This document shows positions 11,510 to 45,916 of a DNA stretch of 64,000 bases, piece by piece; the stretch's first letter is position 1; each line of letters begins with the position of its first letter. The DNA is from Candidatus Magasanikiibacteriota bacterium. Its GTDB lineage: Bacteria; Patescibacteriota; Patescibacteriia; Magasanikbacterales; UBA922. Position numbers and translations under genes: made by a program. The stretch spans positions 24,791 to 88,790 of the forward strand of contig JBPOJQ010000006.1 of NCBI GenBank assembly GCA_052033375.1, in the 5' to 3' direction. Below the pieces are notes generated by a model. That model was not told the origin of the DNA. It did not search any database and worked only from the letters and a program-made list of their open reading frames with translations.

Positions 11510-12565
11510 TTAGACAGCTAGATTTCGATGCATTCTTTCTTGCAATGTTATGTGTGCATTTTCATCAGAAATAGCATCCAGACAAGGAGATACATGTCCG
11601 TCTACAAAAAGCTGTGCAGCATTCTTCTCACTAATTCCCCTACTCTGTGCGTAGAATAATTTTTCTCGATCAATATGTGCAGTAGTGACTCCATGCGAAC
11701 ACTTCACATCACTATTTTCAATTTCAAGATTAGGCACTGCATTCACCTCAGCACTATTAGACAATACCAAACTATCTTCTTTCTGATATCCTGTACATCC
11801 TACAGACTTCTCATCAATATGGATAAGCCCCTGATACAATGCTTTTGCTTTGCCATTCAATACACCTTTGGTAAGCATATCAGACGTCGTGTGTGACGCG
11901 AGATGGTACATGGAATGGTACATATCAACTACAGTACTGCCTGCAAGCGCAAATATTCCCTTTACTTCAGCTCGACTCCCAGGTTCGTATAAATATGTTC
12001 TAATGTGAGACTGAATCAATTCCCCCTCAATAGTGCCTTCCATCCATTTAATCAATGAATTTTCTTGCAAATACGCATTTCGGAGTACTGTTCGCATACT
12101 TGTATGTTCAGGGTGAGCCACAAACGTAACCTCAGCACCTTTTCCTACAATAATATCAAGCGTATATCCGAGATAAGCACTTCCCGTAATCGATTCAGCA
12201 AGAATAACTTTTGCTCCATCTTCAATAGCAATAACCACATGAGTTCGTGAAGAATTCTGTATGTCTAACAAAAGAGTGTGAGTAGTCAACGTGTTTGTGT
12301 TTTTAACAGTAAAATAAAATTCATCAGTAGGCTGTGTATGTACTAAATTAAAAAGTGGAAAATCGAAGAGATGCTTACTTACAATTGAGCTAAGTTTTTC
12401 ATTTTTTTCTAAAATCGATTGAAGCGTGTTCTTATCACCAACTTCAGAATTTGAAAGTGAAACCACGCTCGATGATGCTTCGAATTTGAGCGTATCATAA
12501 GCCAGTGGCTCAAAATTCATGAGCATTCCTATACCATAGTGAATTGTATAGGGAGTTGATTTCAT
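11510..12565 (-). CDS. sufD: Fe-S cluster assembly protein SufD
   Basis: 351 aa SufBD-family beta-helix C-terminal region. It lies downstream of sufB. Confidence 0.8.
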   Translation of the reverse strand: MKSTPYTIHYGIGMLMNFEPLAYDTLKFEASSSVVSLSNSEVGDKNTLQSILEKNEKLSSIVSKHLFDFPLFNLVHTQPTDEFYFTVKNTNTLTTHTLLLDIQNSSRTHVVIAIEDGAKVILAESITGSAYLGYTLDIIVGKGAEVTFVAHPEHTSMRTVLRNAYLQENSLIKWMEGTIEGELIQSHIRTYLYEPGSRAEVKGIFALAGSTVVDMYHSMYHLASHTTSDMLTKGVLNGKAKALYQGLIHIDEKSVGCTGYQKEDSLVLSNSAEVNAVPNLEIENSDVKCSHGVTTAHIDREKLFYAQSRGISEKNAAQLFVDGHVSPCLDAISDENAHITLQERMHRNLAV

Positions 12566-12635
12566 AATTGACTTTTGTATAAATAATGTTAGTATCTGAT
12601 GAATCGGACGCCTCCACCGTCCGGAAGGAGAAAAA

Positions 12636-39962: not shown

Positions 39963-39990
39963 TTGACTTTTATTGTATTTTTGGTAAAAT
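39963..39990 (+). promoter_or_regulatory. sigma70-like promoter of tRNA-Gln (TTGACT-16-TAAAAT)
   Basis: Seen in the sequence about 30 nt upstream of the tRNA. Confidence 0.45.
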
Positions 39991-40019: not shown

Positions 40020-40090
40020 TCGGGGATCGTCTAATGGTAGGACTACAGGTTCTGGACCTGTGTATCGGGGTTCGAATCCCTGTCCCCGAG
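40020..40090 (+). tRNA. tRNA-Gln (anticodon CUG)
   Basis: Manual fold. Acceptor TCGGGGA/TCCCCGA. D-arm GTCT-AATGGTA-GGAC. Anticodon stem ACAGG/CCTGT with loop TTCTGGA (CTG at positions 34-36). T-arm CGGGG-TTCGAAT-CCCTG. Discriminator G. CCA not encoded. Confidence 0.85.
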
Positions 40091-40098
40091 CTAAAAAA

Positions 40099-40130
40099 AG
40101 AATATCGCCAATTGGATATATTCTTTTTTT
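40099..40130 (+). terminator. intrinsic terminator after tRNA-Gln (GAATAT...ATATTC + T7)
   Basis: Seen in the sequence. Confidence 0.55.
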
Positions 40131-40142
40131 AAGTCAGAGATA

Positions 40143-40261
40143 AAGAGGGATTCGAACGAGGGAAGGGTGAAACCGTGAGGTTTCACTGGACTGAGGAAAG
40201 TACACGAAAACCCGAAGGTTTTCGTGATATGTTCGAATAGCGAAGCGCCCTGTCCCCGAGC
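40143..40261 (+). repeat. tRNA-Gln 3'-end-derived element 1: starts with an inverted copy of the tRNA T-arm/3' region (GAGGGATTCGAAC) and ends with a direct copy of the tRNA 3' end (CCCTGTCCCCGAGC); internal perfect hairpins
   Basis: Direct comparison with tRNA positions 40072-40093. Internal hairpins GTGAAACC-gtgag-GGTTTCAC and CACGAAAACC-cgaa-GGTTTTCGTG. Confidence 0.6.
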
Positions 40262-40306
40262 AAAATATAAATACACCCATATAGGTGTATTTATATTTAT
40301 GATAGT

Positions 40307-40407
40307 GAGAGGGATTCGAAGGACGCGAGAGAAGCCGAGCGTGCGAGGCTTCGGTGCGCAGCGCCCCGGTACCCGAACGGAGTGAGGGGGAATCCCTGTC
40401 CCCGAGC
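40307..40407 (+). repeat. tRNA-Gln 3'-end-derived element 2: same architecture (GAGAGGGATTCGAA ... GGGGGAATCCCTGTCCCCGAGC)
   Basis: 21-nt match to the tRNA 3' end with the TTCG of the T-loop deleted. Internal hairpin GAAGCC-gagcgtgcgag-GGCTTC. Confidence 0.6.
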
Positions 40408-40418
40408 TAGTGACAGTA

Positions 40419-40763
40419 TTAATCTTTGGCGCGACGATAAATGACACCAGTGATAATCGAAGCAATTAATGCAAAGGTTATTAGTACAGTAATCCAATTT
40501 TGAGTAACCAAATACCAGATGAGTGTTGCAAACATTTTGCAAAATCCATACACAAATTGTATGGCCACATTCAGACTTTCATAGATGATGTTAAAAATAG
40601 GAATTTGTATCATTCCTGTACTATTATTAACAATAACAAAACAGCTAATACTGATAATAGCTAATAGCGCTATAATTATCCATTCAATTTTGTGCTTTTT
40701 TGAGACCATATTATCATAAAAGACGGCGTAGCCATCTCTATATTTGTGTAGTTTTGCGACCAT
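40419..40763 (-). CDS. small hypothetical membrane protein (3 TM) at the edge of the AT-rich island
   Basis: 114 aa, hydrophobic. AT-rich composition like the island. Confidence 0.4.
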   Translation of the reverse strand: MVAKLHKYRDGYAVFYDNMVSKKHKIEWIIIALLAIISISCFVIVNNSTGMIQIPIFNIIYESLNVAIQFVYGFCKMFATLIWYLVTQNWITVLITFALIASIITGVIYRRAKD

Positions 40764-40880
40764 GTCCTAAGGAATAGTTTTTAGGTCTTAAATTTTTTTT
40801 ATTTTACGTCATTTAAGTATTAAAGGCAAGAAATTGTCTTTTTAGAATAAATTAGATACTATAGGGTAAATTACGATGCT

Positions 40881-42884
40881 ATGTATCTATCGCAACTTAT
40901 AGTAAGAAATTATAGATCAATAAAACAGTTAAATATTAATTTTGAAAAAGGAAAAAATATTATTGTTGGAAAAAATAACGCAGGAAAATCCAATATAATA
41001 AAGGCAATAGATCTTATACTTGGAGACACAAGTCCTACATACGAAAAGTTAGAAAATATAACTGATAATGATTTTTTCGGCGGTGACACTTCAAAAAACA
41101 TTTTAATTTTTGCAAAATTAAATCGTGAAGCAAAAGAACCTCTTAATTATGAGGAACTATACAAGTGCTATGGTTTTTATAGAGATACTAACCAGGTGAA
41201 TTTACCTGAAAATAATCCAGATATATTTTCTAGACATTTAGCTGTTTTATTTAAAACTAATCCTGAAGACTTGGAACGCGCAAGAAAAAAATATATTAAT
41301 CCAAAATTAAAAAATCAACGGACCTTTGAAAATGAATTTGATAACAAACATGAATTCGGCCTAGTATTTTATGCTCATAAAGATGATCACGGCAGAATTA
41401 ACAAAGAAATGAGATTTATATATAGAGAAGGATCTGGTCAAAATTGGGTGGTCGCTTTTTCGGCAGCAGCAAGGAATGGATTATTACAAAGCGCAATAAT
41501 TCCTTCTTTTAGGGATCCTCAGAATCAATTAAGAATAAGTAGTTGGAGTTGGTATGGAAAATTATTAAAAAGCGTGGTCGATCCTAATAATAAAAATTTA
41601 CAAAAAGCATTTCAAGAGGTTAAAATTGCATCTGAAGATGTTTTTTCTCAGCTTGAAACTAAAATTAATAATAGTAAAGTTAAAGTTGCTTTTCCAAATA
41701 CTAAAATTTCCTTTCAATTTAATCCAGACACTAAGCAGGACATTCATAAGAGTGCATTGGTTTATGTTGACGATGGTTTTAAGAGTCAATTACAAGATAA
41801 AGGATCGGGAATACAAAGTGCCGTGATAATAGGATTATTTGATTTTTATACACGAGAGATTGCACATCAAGGAAATTCATTGCTGGCAGTTGAAGAACCA
41901 GAACTCTATTTACATCCTCATGGACGAAGAGTGCTCTCTAACAGATTAGACGATTTTTTAGATGGGAATAAAAATCAAGTTATTATTACTACCCATTCAC
42001 CTGAATTTATTAGTACAGCAAATGATAGGTTTAATATAGTAGTGGCTTGTAAAAATGAAGAAGGAAAGACAGAGGCAAAAAATGTTAATTTTAGTAATGC
42101 TAAAGAAAGACAAATTTTAATAAAAAATCAAAATGCTGAAATGTTTTTTGCTGATTGTGTAATTTTGGTTGAAGGCGGAGGTGATAAATATATTCTTGAA
42201 ATGGTGGCTAAAAAATTTGGTGAAGAAAAAAATATAGGATCAAATTGGTTAAATGATAATAACATCTCTGTTATTCCTGTAATTGGAAAATCCGAATTTT
42301 ATAAATATGCTAAAAAATTAAAAGAAGCGAATATTGATTGTTATATTTTTGCAGATTTTGATTATCTTTGTTCAAAATTAGCAGAATGTTTAACCGAACT
42401 CGATTATAAAGAATTAAAAAATGATCATAACACTGTTAATGGTAAGATTAAAAAGATTCCAAATGAAAAATGTGAGGCGTGTAAACAAAATATTAAAGCA
42501 CAATCTTACCCTAAGAGAATAGATGAATTAACAGATAAAGCCCTAAAGACAGAGGTGGAATCTTTTATTGCAAAACTATCAGATAGTAAAATTTATATTT
42601 GTGCCGATGAATTAGAAGATCGTTATAGAGACAAAAACTTAATTAAAGGTATCAGTGGTAAAGAAGAAGCAGCTTTACATATAGTGGGGCATATTTTAGA
42701 AACTAATAAAGATATTAATGACCTTATTGAGTTAAAAGATTTTTGGAATATTTTTGATAAAATATTAGAACATAAAAAAATACCACCTAAAACACAAAAT
42801 AGCTCAGAAAAGAAAGTCCCCACAGACTTACCTAATGATCTTGATAGTAACTTAGAATTAGAATCAAATGAGAACATTTTTTAA
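40881..42884 (+). CDS. OLD-family ATP-dependent endonuclease: N-terminal ABC-type ATPase + C-terminal TOPRIM domain (GajA / P2 Old / AriAB-like)
   Basis: Walker A GKNNAGKSN. Walker B/D-loop LLAVEEPELYLHPHGRRVL. H-loop VIITTHSPEF. TOPRIM with CVILVEGGGDKYILE (catalytic Glu) and IFADFDYL (DxD). Length is 667 aa. First gene of a tight three-gene operon. Confidence 0.8.
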   Translation: MYLSQLIVRNYRSIKQLNINFEKGKNIIVGKNNAGKSNIIKAIDLILGDTSPTYEKLENITDNDFFGGDTSKNILIFAKLNREAKEPLNYEELYKCYGFYRDTNQVNLPENNPDIFSRHLAVLFKTNPEDLERARKKYINPKLKNQRTFENEFDNKHEFGLVFYAHKDDHGRINKEMRFIYREGSGQNWVVAFSAAARNGLLQSAIIPSFRDPQNQLRISSWSWYGKLLKSVVDPNNKNLQKAFQEVKIASEDVFSQLETKINNSKVKVAFPNTKISFQFNPDTKQDIHKSALVYVDDGFKSQLQDKGSGIQSAVIIGLFDFYTREIAHQGNSLLAVEEPELYLHPHGRRVLSNRLDDFLDGNKNQVIITTHSPEFISTANDRFNIVVACKNEEGKTEAKNVNFSNAKERQILIKNQNAEMFFADCVILVEGGGDKYILEMVAKKFGEEKNIGSNWLNDNNISVIPVIGKSEFYKYAKKLKEANIDCYIFADFDYLCSKLAECLTELDYKELKNDHNTVNGKIKKIPNEKCEACKQNIKAQSYPKRIDELTDKALKTEVESFIAKLSDSKIYICADELEDRYRDKNLIKGISGKEEAALHIVGHILETNKDINDLIELKDFWNIFDKILEHKKIPPKTQNSSEKKVPTDLPNDLDSNLELESNENIF

Positions 42885-42896
42885 GATTTTCATAAA

Positions 42897-44360
42897 ATGG
42901 AAAGCAATAGATTTTTTCAAAAACTAAGTGAAGTATCTCCATTAGTAAACAATTACGCGTTTAATTTTTTTGAAATATCCAAGTATGGGAGTTTTAAAGA
43001 ATCACTTGAGAAAGTAAATCATAAAGATTTCATAAGTAAATGTTACGAAGGTTTTAAAATCGCTCAGGATAAATTAATCGAAAATATTTTGGAGATTGAA
43101 TCAGAAATTGAGAAAATAAAAAGCGAAATCAATGAATATGAAAGAGGTAAAAAGAAATCATCTTTAAAAGATGATTCTCATTATTTAGGAATGAATCGAC
43201 AAAAAAATGACCTAATTTTTCAAAGAGCTTCTTTTAGAGAATTAGCCAATGTTATTGTCTGGACAATTTTTTTAGAACAAAGAACAGATATTAAGAGTTT
43301 TATAAAATTAAGTAACAGTGATGGATATTTAAAAGACAGAGATATTGAAAATTGCATAAAGGTTGCAAGACAAATAAATAATGATAGTAATACTTTTGCT
43401 CTAATTACTGACATTACCTCTACTCTTCATGTTGGAGACCTGATTGTAGTGGAAGAAGGTAAAATATCTGTAACTGAAGTTAAAAGAGATACTAAGATAA
43501 ATAATTTAATATCAAATATTGTTGAATATCCAAAAGATCCTAAAGATACAAAAATTTTTCTTGAAGAACTCATACAAACTTATGGTGTTAAGGGTGTTAA
43601 GCAGCTTCAAAGAAACATGCGTCAAATGATAAGAATGCATAATATTAAAGAGTACATTGAAAAAGATGAAGTTTTTGATTTTGATTTAAATCAAAAGAAA
43701 TATGCTTTTGAGGTTTCAACTCCGGATATAGATTTCATGAAATTCTTAGAAATGGCATTAGATGAGTTTTACAAACATGAAAGAAAAATGTTTGTTTTTC
43801 CTACAGACTGTTGTTTCGTAGGAATTGTAAGAAAAAATGGAGAAAAATCAGAAATAGCTTTTAAATTGGATTTTAAACATGACATATATCATAGACTATT
43901 TAAAAATTGGGACGAATGCGCGTTTAGTAATAAAGATAAGCCAGGATTTACAAAAGAAAATATTCCAGAAATGTTTTTATATCATAAGTTGGATATATAT
44001 TCTTTTAAAGACAAAGTATTTTTTCCGGCACAGCGGCCACTTTTTTTGAGTCTGAAACAGGAATATGTAATTGACTTGTTGACTGACAAGATTGCTATCT
44101 ATATTTATTTTGATCCAGATCGTCTAATAGAAATGGCTAAAGAAAGAAAATTAAAAATGGAATTTGTAAAAAAGACCTCGAAAATAAAAGATCATCCTTA
44201 TAAAAATGAATTTCCTTTTTTCGAAAAGGGTTATATGCAGGTAAGTAATAAGGAAACAAAACTAATAATAGGCTATGGAATTATATTGAGAATAGTTTAT
44301 GAATTGCAGTCTGGATATAATTTGATTGAACATTTAAAAGAAGACCTTAAAAAGATTTAG
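42897..44360 (+). CDS. 487-aa protein of unknown function, second gene of the OLD-family operon; possible PD-(D/E)xK-type core (LHVGDLIVVEEGKISVTEVK)
   Basis: 12-bp gap to the upstream gene. No P-loop or helicase motifs, so not a GajB/UvrD-type partner. GD...EVK spacing is compatible with a restriction-endonuclease-like fold. This is an inference only. Confidence 0.45.
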   Translation: MESNRFFQKLSEVSPLVNNYAFNFFEISKYGSFKESLEKVNHKDFISKCYEGFKIAQDKLIENILEIESEIEKIKSEINEYERGKKKSSLKDDSHYLGMNRQKNDLIFQRASFRELANVIVWTIFLEQRTDIKSFIKLSNSDGYLKDRDIENCIKVARQINNDSNTFALITDITSTLHVGDLIVVEEGKISVTEVKRDTKINNLISNIVEYPKDPKDTKIFLEELIQTYGVKGVKQLQRNMRQMIRMHNIKEYIEKDEVFDFDLNQKKYAFEVSTPDIDFMKFLEMALDEFYKHERKMFVFPTDCCFVGIVRKNGEKSEIAFKLDFKHDIYHRLFKNWDECAFSNKDKPGFTKENIPEMFLYHKLDIYSFKDKVFFPAQRPLFLSLKQEYVIDLLTDKIAIYIYFDPDRLIEMAKERKLKMEFVKKTSKIKDHPYKNEFPFFEKGYMQVSNKETKLIIGYGIILRIVYELQSGYNLIEHLKEDLKKI

Positions 44361-44366
44361 TTTATA

Positions 44367-45149
44367 GTGTTTACTATGAATTTTGATATAGAAGTTTTTA
44401 ATAAAAAAACTCAAGATTTTATTAAAGAAATAGAGCAAGAATTTGGTCATGAGATTAGAGTTGAATACATTGATTTAGAAGAAGGGCATAGTGGTTTTTG
44501 TAATGTCGATGAAACGGGTACACCAACTGTAACATTAAATTCCAATGAAAAAGATGCTGAGAAAATAAAACATTTTTTAATTCATGAAACTTATCATCTT
44601 AGATTACTATTAAATAAGTTTCCAATGTTTGCTTCTGTGGGAAATGCGCAGGTAGTCTATGTGCCAGAGTACTATAAATATATAAGTAACAATTTTTGGG
44701 ATAAAATTGTGCATTCATATTTTTATCCTAAAATAAAAAATGAACTAGATCATGATCCGTATAAACATTTCGAACCAGATTTTAATTTGATTAAAAATAG
44801 TTTATTGGAAAAGAAATTTAGTGAGAACTCAGATGACGTAAAAAAAATGCGAATAATCGGTTGGTATCACCAAATTTGGGCCGAAGGGAAAAAAGAGGAT
44901 CTATTAGAGTATGAGAGTTTAGTTAAGGAGTATCATAATAGTCTCGGTTTAAAAGAGAGCGAAAAAATGATTAAAATATTTGAAAAAAGAGATATTAAAA
45001 ATTCTAAGGATCTGATCGATATTTTCATTGAATTTTTTAATGCTATACACGAGGATAGAGAAATAATTTTAGTAAGTGAAGAGGTTAAATTGAGAGGGAG
45101 TTTTGAATTGCAGGTCGCATATTTTACTGTTTATAAGCTGGATAAATAA
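44367..45149 (+). CDS. HExxH zinc metallopeptidase-like protein (ImmA/IrrE/M78-like motif HETYH), third gene of the operon
   Basis: LIHETYHLRLL motif. 6-bp gap to the upstream gene. Length is 260 aa. Confidence 0.45.
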   Translation: MFTMNFDIEVFNKKTQDFIKEIEQEFGHEIRVEYIDLEEGHSGFCNVDETGTPTVTLNSNEKDAEKIKHFLIHETYHLRLLLNKFPMFASVGNAQVVYVPEYYKYISNNFWDKIVHSYFYPKIKNELDHDPYKHFEPDFNLIKNSLLEKKFSENSDDVKKMRIIGWYHQIWAEGKKEDLLEYESLVKEYHNSLGLKESEKMIKIFEKRDIKNSKDLIDIFIEFFNAIHEDREIILVSEEVKLRGSFELQVAYFTVYKLDK

Positions 45150-45250
45150 GTTCCTATTTCATCCCACAGCCAGAGCTAATAAAAAATACCCTATCCACGG
45201 GTATTTTGTTTTTACATTATCATGATATACTATATGCCTAATTTTAGTAT

Positions 45251-45916
45251 ATGATCGACCAACTCGTCACCTACATCCAATCACTCATCGCGACCTACGG
45301 CGCATGGGGAGTATTCCTCGCAACCATGATTGAGGAAATCATCGCCCCAATCCCCTCACCTATCGTCCCTCTTGCCGCAGGCTTTTTCCTCATCACCCCC
45401 GAGATAACATCACTCATACAAATATTGATCAAAATAGGCGTCGTCATTGCTCTCCCCGTGACCGCGGGCATTACCATAGGATCTGCCTGTGTATATGCGA
45501 TTGGTTTTTTTGGCGGGAAACCAGTACTTGATCGGACCAAAAAATGGCTGGGCTTCGGATGGGACGATGTACAAAAAGTAGAAACTCGTCTCCACAAAGG
45601 AAAGAAAGACGAATGGGTGTTATTTTTTCTCCGCATGATTCCGATTGTACCAGGTGTCGCTATTTCCGGTTTATGTGGCATCATACGCTATCCGTTTTTC
45701 AAATTCATCACTATCACCATGCTCGGGGCATGTCTGCGAGCATTCATTCTCGGAATTATTGGATGGAAAGTGGGAGAAGTATATGGCGCGTTTGCACATA
45801 CGGTAGAAAAGAGTGAAGATTATATTCTATATGCGGTTATCGGCATATTGTTCATATGGGGAGTATATTACTTTTTTAAAAAACGTACATTAAAAAATAA
45901 CATCACACAACCATAA
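45251..45916 (+). CDS. DedA/VTT family membrane protein
   Basis: GAWGVFLATMIEEIIAPIPSPIVPLAAGF is the typical DedA N-terminal motif. Length is 221 aa. Confidence 0.75.
   Translation: MIDQLVTYIQSLIATYGAWGVFLATMIEEIIAPIPSPIVPLAAGFFLITPEITSLIQILIKIGVVIALPVTAGITIGSACVYAIGFFGGKPVLDRTKKWLGFGWDDVQKVETRLHKGKKDEWVLFFLRMIPIVPGVAISGLCGIIRYPFFKFITITMLGACLRAFILGIIGWKVGEVYGAFAHTVEKSEDYILYAVIGILFIWGVYYFFKKRTLKNNITQP

Follow-up and report, generated by a model that had tools for sequence, protein, structure and literature searches.

Structured non-coding units stacked behind tRNA-Gln in Patescibacteria

A 64,000-nucleotide (nt) stretch of a Candidatus Magasanikiibacteriota genome (contig JBPOJQ010000006.1; here called the window) carries a tRNA-Gln gene followed by two short non-coding units, each of which ends in a copy of the tRNA's own 3' end. 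The units are inserted DNA. They belong to a family that lies behind tRNA-Gln in other low-GC Patescibacteria, has a fold supported by covariation and sits at the boundaries of variable DNA or cassettes. What could such units be? The explanation we favor, to which we give a probability of about one half, is that they are mini-cassettes without coding content, parts of a recombination system whose site of action is the tRNA 3' end and whose recombinase comes in trans; cassettes would then recombine at the fold of the unit.

Few mobile elements are known for the tiny genomes of the Patescibacteria or Candidate Phyla Radiation (CPR), and how these bacteria acquire accessory and defense genes is an open question. 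A structured non-coding element at a tRNA-Gln hotspot of gene insertion can be searched for with a covariance model. As a recombination site, it would indicate a new cassette system, and co-occurrence could lead to the recombinase. As an RNA, it would carry the RtT class beyond enterobacterial tRNA-Tyr, into a distant phylum and onto a different tRNA, an argument for a general function of RNAs in tRNA trailers. For the window itself, the boundaries of the insertion (40092-45176) are fixed, as is the order of acquisition of its island encoding an OLD-family nuclease.

Inserted DNA behind tRNA-Gln

The tRNA-Gln(CTG) gene is intact (40020-40091, + strand; 57.8 bits) and is the only tRNA gene that ARAGORN and Rfam call in the window. 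The stretch from its T loop to its 3' end (40070-40091) is what is copied downstream. The terminal 18-mer, GAATCCCTGTCCCCGAGC (40074-40091), has an exact second copy at 40390-40407, a match reached in none of 100 shuffles, and the final 14 nt are repeated at 40248-40261; a first-pass annotation had picked out both recurrences, and both prove to be exact over 18 and 14 nt, respectively. From start to start, the successive ends are 170 and 146 bp apart. Ahead of each downstream copy lies the T arm in inverted form, again as first annotated: AGAGGGATTCGAA[C/G]GA, at 40144 and 40308, is the reverse complement of the T loop plus the 3' strand of the T stem, complementary at 12/12 positions in unit 1 and 13/14 in unit 2. 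With up to two mismatches allowed, this inverted-arm motif occurs six times in the window (0.78 expected), three of them at this locus. Positions 40070-40157 form a single long imperfect palindrome, with a predicted fold of -52.2 kcal/mol (z = -4.3).

The likeness of the units to tRNA-Gln is limited to the last 14-32 nt of the tRNA. We rejected a tRNA pseudogene or tandem tRNA duplication, as there are no remnants of a D arm or anticodon arm and ARAGORN and Rfam call one tRNA. A minus-strand tRNA ending in the inverted T arm would have unpaired stems, and ARAGORN finds none. The sequences GGAUUCGA(A)C and GGAC recall motifs of the tRNA-like domain of tmRNA; a tmRNA, whether in one piece or two, also fails, with no ARAGORN or Rfam match, no tag open reading frame (ORF) and no acceptor 5' strand.

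How was the locus arranged before the units arrived? A DnaX-based search assigns the window to Candidatus Magasanikbacteria, within the Patescibacteria. The tRNA-Gln gene adjoins dnaX in five further loci (L001-L005), whose DnaX proteins are 77% (L001 and L002) or 65-68% (L003-L005) identical to that of the window. An alignment with relatives lacking the island had been proposed as the way to find an empty site, and L001, a species-level relative, has one: its tRNA-Gln runs directly into a terminator and then a DedA/VTT gene, which correspond to the window from 45177 onward. At the left junction the alignment runs through the tRNA up to GAGCTAAA; to the right of the insert, homology restarts at GAGCTAA. 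The window and L001:12203-12300 are 82% identical over the whole two-sequence alignment. With an empty site and both junctions aligned, 40092-45176 (5,085 bp) is therefore inserted DNA. The tRNA-Gln genes themselves are nearly identical, their two substitutions making up a compensating T-stem pair. This stem reads CGGGG/CCCTG in the window (40066-40082) and CGAGG/CCTTG in L001 (12176-12192), and the copies in the window units have the window version.

The insert has three parts: unit 1, unit 2 and the low-GC island. A decayed copy of the tRNA-Gln segment from T loop to 3' end, GTTCctatttcaTCCCacagCCaGAGC (45150-45176, + strand), is the right boundary of the entire insertion. Direct repeats of the tRNA 3' part, four in all, and an empty site in L001 are as expected of a tRNA-targeting integrative element of the tyrosine or serine integrase type. 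The first reading of the locus, as stacked insertions at the tRNA-Gln 3' end, has thus held up; the distal copy that it suggested seeking beyond 45240 is present, decayed, short of that position. The native terminator of tRNA-Gln (45180-45214, + strand, located through the L001 alignment) now stands 5.1 kb away from its tRNA and ahead of the DedA/VTT gene (45251-45916; Pfam), so the hairpins at 40093 and 40263 arrived with the inserts.

The first of these, hp1 (40093-40130; inverted repeat I1), is an AT-rich, terminator-like palindrome of A-run, hairpin and T-run, part of the inserted DNA and unlike the native terminator. Unit 1 follows at 40144-40261 (+ strand; predicted fold -40.9 kcal/mol, z = -2.9). 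It opens with the 5' arm AGAGGGATTCGAAC (40144-40157), continues through perfect hairpins at 40167-40186 and 40203-40226, a full T-loop copy, GTTCGAAT (40231-40238), and a GCGAAGC motif (40240-40246), and closes with its tRNA 3'-end copy (40248-40261), which is interrupted. A second AT-rich terminator-like palindrome, hp2 (40263-40298; inverted repeat I2, 18-nt arms, 94% complementary), leads to unit 2 (40308-40407, + strand), a miniaturized form of what we call type A. Its parts are the 5' arm AGAGGGATTCGAAG, the motifs GCGAGAG/CGAGCG, a 6-bp hairpin GAAGCC...GGCTTC and the exact 18-nt tRNA copy at 40390-40407. Perfect internal hairpins had been claimed for both units, rightly. The lengths of the window units, 118 and 100 nt, fall below the 150-170 nt typical of the family. 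The 64-kb window holds no further copies, and no target-site duplication is seen at the units.

The sole promoter-like match upstream of the units on the + strand is the site before tRNA-Gln, TTGACT-16-TAAAAT with TG (39963-39990, + strand); there is no + strand promoter-like site between 40092 and 40411.

Units are absent from L002-L005, and L002 has other cargo behind a hairpin plus GGAGAGATTCAAACC. An arrangement kept in all relatives without the island, the first-pass annotation argued, would be a structural feature of the tRNA locus rather than a trace of integration. The outcome is mixed: L001-L005, the closest relatives, are without units, and lineages further away have retained them in good condition. 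Strain-level relatives were sought by exact match to the rhodanese, DedA and a 487-aa island protein, with no record returned.

A family with a covarying fold

One metagenome scan, with the pattern TGTCCCCGAGC-N35-65-GRGATTCRAA, which is biased towards arrangements in which the unit comes first, returned 56 loci. About 37 of these are chance matches in GC-rich DNA; the 19 real ones (about 15 distinct) are low-GC Patescibacteria contigs with a true tRNA-Gln (CTG or TTG) ahead of the module. After the tRNA come an AT-rich hairpin, a spacer of 8-17 nt, (A)GGGATTCGAAC, a GC- and purine-rich stretch of 100-170 nt and GCG-NN-AATCCCTGTCCCCGAGC. This last element is the second copy of the tRNA end, 207-224 bp from the first. 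Units are often found without an adjacent island. Ten aligned units share the motifs CGAAC, AAGCGAG, CGAGCG, GGACAAG and GCGAA.

A covariance model built for the units, R1, finds further members, among them two in an Uhrbacteria genome (L009; 76.9 and 48.1 bits) that was fetched through DnaX, independently of the motif. On 1.33 Mb of unrelated control loci R1 never exceeds 22 bits, and the matches there are tRNA-Gln genes. Unit 2 scores 33.6 bits (E = 9e-7 in 482 kb and 1.4e-8 in 7.5 kb, R1 E-values being rough); it is above the control ceiling and therefore a specific, miniaturized family member. For unit 1, named type B, a collinear homologue lies at L136:985-1103, its hairpins compensated. 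A possible decayed third 5' arm, GAGAGGGAGTTTTGAAT (45092-45108, + strand), is a tentative call by eye that R1 does not detect; it lies inside the end of the ORF at 44367-45149, about 45 nt ahead of the decayed distal tRNA-end copy. Rfam 15 has no family matching the units, literature searches gave no description of the unit motif in Patescibacteria, and about 0.5 Mb of CPR loci contain no unit copies away from tRNA-Gln.

RNAalifold predicts a closing helix, P1, a helix P2, internal hairpins and a 3' hairpin. In P1, the 5' arm pairs with the unit's own 3' end. Across ten units, compensatory changes occur in 13 of the 29 predicted pairs. In a set of 16 units, 92% of cells form pairs, a share that drops to 37-42% once the partners are slid; 16 pairs have changed on both sides, and none of 500 shuffles reaches the observed covariation score. 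The alignment consists of related sequences and was fitted to the model, a fit that favors this outcome. The 5' arm and 3' end form terminal inverted arms of 9-12 bp that covary. G-T combinations outnumber A-C by 27 to 8, which favors folding of the + strand. In L009 the tRNA-Gln with units behind it has a different 3' end (…TCCTAGTCCCGCAGC), and the P1 compensations of its units (CCAGGA/TCCTGG and GGACT/AGTCC) differ from the resident tRNA; P1 is therefore selected in its own right.

Cassettes, trailer RNAs or scars

Comparison of arrays suggests that the units behave as parts of cassettes. The two L136 units close with a tRNA-Gln-type end that is foreign (…CCGCCCCAGC), the resident tRNA having …TCCCCGAGC as its end; the unit therefore carries its own 3' end. 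A crossover in the T loop would break the tRNA acceptor stem, so the joint lies at or after …AGC. The neighboring proteins of L112 and L115 are 78% identical, the first unit of L115 and the second of L112 are 95% identical, and L112 has an additional unit and a gene for a 158-aa protein inserted on the tRNA-proximal side. The whole L112 array consists of four units interleaved with cargo. Two units enclose 5 kb of cargo in L009; in L087 one unit is followed by two one-gene cassettes ending in bare tRNA-end copies. L087, L099 and L130 share a flanking downstream gene at 90% identity and differ in cargo. Cargo types include DUF218, methyltransferases, a deacetylase, a radical-SAM enzyme, a nucleotidyltransferase and unknowns. 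The window fits the pattern, with two cargo-less cassettes followed by a defense cassette.

On the cassette reading, the ancestral order was tRNA-Gln, terminator, dedA, and 40092-45176 represents three successive insertions at the tRNA-Gln 3' end. Each closes with its own copy of that end: unit 1, which with its hairpin measures 170 bp, unit 2, of 146 bp, and the 4.8-kb OLD-nuclease island. A cassette starts with an AT-rich terminator hairpin, which would restore termination of the tRNA, and a short spacer. Next comes the 5' arm, an inverted T loop plus T-stem 3' strand, and then an interior rich in GC and purines, made of one to several hairpins. At the end stands a tRNA-Gln 3' end, with a T-loop remnant, the T-stem 3' strand, the acceptor 3' strand, G73 and C74. 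The fold would be used single-stranded or extruded, as are integron attC sites and the attP site of CTX phage, and a recombinase encoded elsewhere would act on it. With crossover at or just after the ...AGC tRNA end, the tRNA would stay intact and the newest cassette would lie nearest to it.

Several findings weigh against this reading. No recombinase has been identified in any unit-bearing locus, and the cargo of these loci includes neither a recombinase nor any recurrent family. Circular or excised forms were not seen. Pfam and PADLOC find none among the island ORFs, which agrees with the early remark that no integrase remains there; phmmer searches with E. coli XerD and a large serine recombinase, a screen covering only proteins like these two, found none in the six-frame ORFs of the 64-kb window and CPR loci. 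Several cargo cassettes (in L087, and the window island) have only a decayed tRNA end at their close and lack a structured unit; the fold is therefore not obligatory, at least in relics. The hairpins before the near-identical units of L112 and L115 differ, so cassette boundaries are not cleanly defined. Unit 1 scores only 21.2 bits under R1, the same as a tRNA-Gln gene, and the covariation figures carry the bias of their alignment. Finally, a multi-branched fold with unpaired conserved motifs (CGAAC, AAGCGAG, GGACAAG, GCGAA) is at least as typical of RNA, as are the high GC content of units in an AT-rich genome and the excess of G-T over A-C; the closest known design, the RtT repeat of E. coli, is annotated in RefSeq as a small RNA, rttR.

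That design underlies the rival that survives best, which we consider possible rather than probable: the units would be RtT-like trailer RNAs. Transcription would start at the tRNA-Gln promoter and read through into them, and processing of the kind that trims tRNA ends would release them: maturation of the tRNA 3' end would create their 5' end, and the tRNA-like tail would supply their 3' end. The same route out of the tyrT operon has been proposed for RtT RNA of E. coli. They would be stable structured RNAs with a regulatory or unknown role. Copy number would vary by unequal recombination between tRNA ends, and the island would have landed in recombination-prone repeats.

The parallel with RtT is close in layout. 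In the tyrT-tyrV-rttR region of E. coli K-12 (L158:1190-2130), the tyrV and tyrT genes have 178-bp repeats behind them. The final 17-19 nt of every repeat are those of tRNA-Tyr, and its interior is GC-rich and contains AGCGAG and GCGAAGCG. Every repeat also includes GGAAGGATGAGAAGC, an imperfect inverted tRNA-Tyr T arm, which pairs with the 3' end copied from the tRNA. The layout in Klebsiella is the same. The window units likewise lie directly behind a tRNA, in tandem and on its strand, copy its 3' end and have a 5' arm that pairs with the copy. The rttR annotation begins immediately behind tyrV and stops at the copied ...CCACCA, and RtT RNA has been detected. Also in keeping with a trailer RNA are the GC-rich fold in an AT-rich genome, its placement on the tRNA strand, the wobble bias, the conserved junction nucleotides and a terminator after each unit.

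Are the two families related? The Rfam RtT model (RF00391), which also pairs the 5' arm with the tRNA-like 3' end, aligns collinearly with unit 2 from end to end at 16.2 bits, far from its gathering threshold of 45 bits, and membership in RtT fails on that score. It gives no match to unit 1, none to L121 at E <= 10 and none in six unit-bearing loci at E <= 1. Searches for homology by model or profile, with R1 against E. coli and nhmmer in both directions, yielded nothing significant. Both families have the short motifs AGCGAG and GCGAAGCG, and the unit in the E. coli tyrT-tyrV spacer shares a 15-nt identity, AGGAGCGAAGCGACG, with L121. Summed local scores between unit and RtT interiors reach 694 against 599 +/- 18 in shuffles, for non-independent sequences; the top single match within the interiors lacks significance (p = 0.07), and the similarity of the interiors is only suggestive. 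The units are built like RtT, and homology to it is unproven. The variant GGATGAGAAG, a TC-to-GA change, occurs in the short CPR unit of L101/L131 as it does in the RtT arm.

There are also differences. RtT belongs to tRNA-Tyr in Enterobacteria and the units to tRNA-Gln in Patescibacteria. E. coli tyrT has neither a terminator hairpin between tRNA and unit nor interleaved cargo; the CPR units have both. A terminator-like T-run hairpin parts every full-length unit seen from the tRNA or upstream gene (the short L101/L131 unit is without one), and there is no promoter, which tells against the RNA reading. Trailer RNAs would also leave unexplained the foreign tRNA ends of L136, the interleaved variable cargo and the presence or absence of units among close relatives. 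Nonetheless, the same units might also be transcribed, and the cassette and RNA readings are compatible, not mutually exclusive.

Four RtT RNA genes with non-consecutive numbers (1634, 1637, 1640, 1642) are listed away from the tRNA-Tyr locus in K. pneumoniae ATCC BAA-2146 (PMC4147364); these could be an RtT array interleaved with genes. Searches for RtT units on phages and plasmids returned only chromosomal tyrT loci mislabelled as plasmids. A broader proposal, which we regard as doubtful, is that Patescibacteria have an undescribed integron-like system of gene capture, in which the 3' end of tRNA-Gln (perhaps tRNA-Pro) is the fixed attachment site, the folded sites are RtT-like and the recombinase acts in trans or is the host's; the E. 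coli RtT repeats would be relics of the same kind of element. In two Patescibacteria loci (L008:4649-4735 and L011:3910-4026), tRNA-Pro(CGG) is followed by an insert of 85-115 nt. These inserts end in the tRNA-Pro 3' end of the other lineage's type, reciprocally (CCCGG vs CCCAC); the phenomenon is therefore not confined to tRNA-Gln.

How does the cassette reading compare with known recombination systems? Integrons gather mostly one-gene cassettes at a fixed site, the newest being proximal, and cargo-less elements occur. Their attC sites are imperfect palindromes of 60-170 nt with paired terminal boxes, in which structure is kept over sequence. The unit arrays resemble them in their one-gene cargo, fixed site, proximal newest cassette and paired end boxes. 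Covarying P1, P2 and P3 helices and the arrays in L112, L009 and L087 may point to a structure-conserved, sequence-variable site at cassette 3' ends; some cassettes are without a unit, and the units are branched. No IntI or attI lies beside the array, and no tyrosine recombinase was found in the 64 kb. Read against the attC boxes R'' (RYYYAAC) and R' (GTTRRRY), the unit sequences TTCGAAC and GTTCGAA each agree at 5/7 positions, short of a fit. Unlike attC sites, the units have terminal boxes that are tRNA T-arm sequences and are multi-branched rather than single hairpins; unlike integron cassettes, theirs begin with a terminator and carry their own promoters.

CTX phage and the related integrative mobile elements exploiting Xer (IMEX) use host Xer recombinases. 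Their attP is a folded single strand of about 150 nt made from two inverted half-sites, and they form tandem arrays in which the site is regenerated. The units are similar in having no element-encoded recombinase, in their paired inverted half-sites and in their tandem arrays at one site. They differ in that the target is a tRNA 3' end and not dif, to which they have no sequence similarity, in having no phage genes, and in that single-stranded use of the units is a proposal.

Accretion of integrative and conjugative elements (ICE) and cis-mobilizable elements (CIME) at tRNA genes offers a third comparison, as do the tycheposons of Prochlorococcus. In the latter, repeated integration at a single tRNA displaces the older elements outward and leaves partial copies of the tRNA behind (doi 10.1101/2020.12.28.424599). 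The window shares with these systems the repeated insertion at one tRNA, the partial tRNA copies as bounds, the outward and decaying older elements and the defense cargo, and integrase-less satellites exist among them. Unlike them, no CPR array has a visible integrase, many CPR elements are gene-less, only 146-224 bp long and endowed with a conserved covarying fold, and the copied end can be foreign, which places the crossover at the extreme tRNA 3' end.

Stacked partial tRNAs are a known residue of such repeated integration (doi 10.1101/2020.12.28.424599), and units 1 and 2 could be just that: inert, decayed attachment (att) scars left by two larger elements after deletion of cargo and integrase. 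They would have no function today, and their similarity to other loci would reflect shared att arms only. We think this unlikely. In its favor are the short length of the window units and their low scores, the interrupted copy in unit 1, the evident decay of the distal copy at the island and the failure of any recombinase to turn up. However, independent deletions would hardly repeat modules of 207-224 bp with the same motif order in more than ten lineages. The helices covary, and structure is therefore selected. Unit 1 has its collinear homologue with compensated hairpins in L136, and the second L112 unit and its L115 counterpart are far more alike than the proteins beside them. Scars fit the decayed state of the window copies but not the family. 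The label of att-site scars, given to the units at first sight, undersells a conserved family with a covariation-supported structure that often has no island adjacent to it.

The same annotation offered small non-autonomous elements with terminal inverted repeats as its other option. Under such a scheme the units would resemble miniature inverted-repeat transposable elements (MITEs), the 5' arm and 3' tRNA-like end serving as the repeats, a transposase encoded elsewhere moving them and a preference for sites behind tRNA-Gln explaining their position. The size of 100-170 bp, the covarying terminal inverted arms, the lack of coding capacity and the presence or absence among relatives are as expected. 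A dispersed family is what did not emerge: other copies are missing from the window and from the roughly 0.5 Mb of CPR loci off tRNA-Gln, no target-site duplication is seen, orientation to the tRNA is constant, and the right arm runs on into a complete tRNA 3' end, which varies with the tRNA-Gln lineage. We consider MITEs very improbable. RNA-guided systems of the TnpB/IscB or IS110 bridge type, with the 3' tRNA end as guide, were rejected, there being no such protein nearby and the supposed guide being paired in P1.

The island and neighboring observations

The low-GC cargo island (40408-45149; GC 0.24-0.35, against about 0.37-0.55 in the flanks) is not present in L001. It begins with a minus-strand ORF for a 114-aa protein with no family match (40419-40763). 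The OLD-family nuclease, with AAA_15 and TOPRIM domains (40881-42884; Pfam and PADLOC), matches the PADLOC 'Old' model at 1.7e-52 and is GajA/AriA-like as well. Proteins of 487 aa (42897-44360) and 260 aa (44367-45149) follow, neither with a family match, and the three together do not form the standard layout of Gabija or PARIS. Homologues of the 487-aa protein in Veblenbacteria (40% identity) stand alone beside an N6_N4 methyltransferase; they are not at tRNA-Gln, and we discarded them as evidence for mobility of the island. Upstream of the array the window has a rhodanese gene and dnaX.

Scans of viral contigs with the module pattern gave chance matches only, without tRNAs; with the 17-nt tRNA end they gave phage tRNA-Gln genes and chance matches. 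In an IMG/VR contig of GC 0.34 (L151:7517-9133), the edge has a tRNA-Gln end with an ORF for a large serine recombinase directly beside it. The GC-rich viral contigs L148 and L149 contain ...GAGCGAAGCGAGG...CCAAATCCCTGTCCCCGAGC without a tRNA, a sequence that may be an attP with a unit-like arm. In L112 (2620-2651), a GC palindrome of 17-20 nt, CCTGCCTGCCGGCAGGCAGG, is inserted inside the tRNA-like 3' end of unit 2.

Relative to dnaX, tRNA-Gln is inverted in L003, L004 and L005 (about 11700-12620) as compared with the window, L001 and L002, and in L003 the inversion includes the rhodanese gene; the locus is therefore prone to rearrangement. An ORF of about 85 aa with a GIY-YIG-like motif, assigned by the motif alone, abuts the 5' end of tRNA-Gln at L005:12620-12990 (minus strand) and L140:759-1013. 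In L005 the first 12 nt of tRNA-Gln (TTCGGGGATCG) are duplicated upstream of this ORF, as if a small element of its own had been inserted at the 5' flank of this tRNA.

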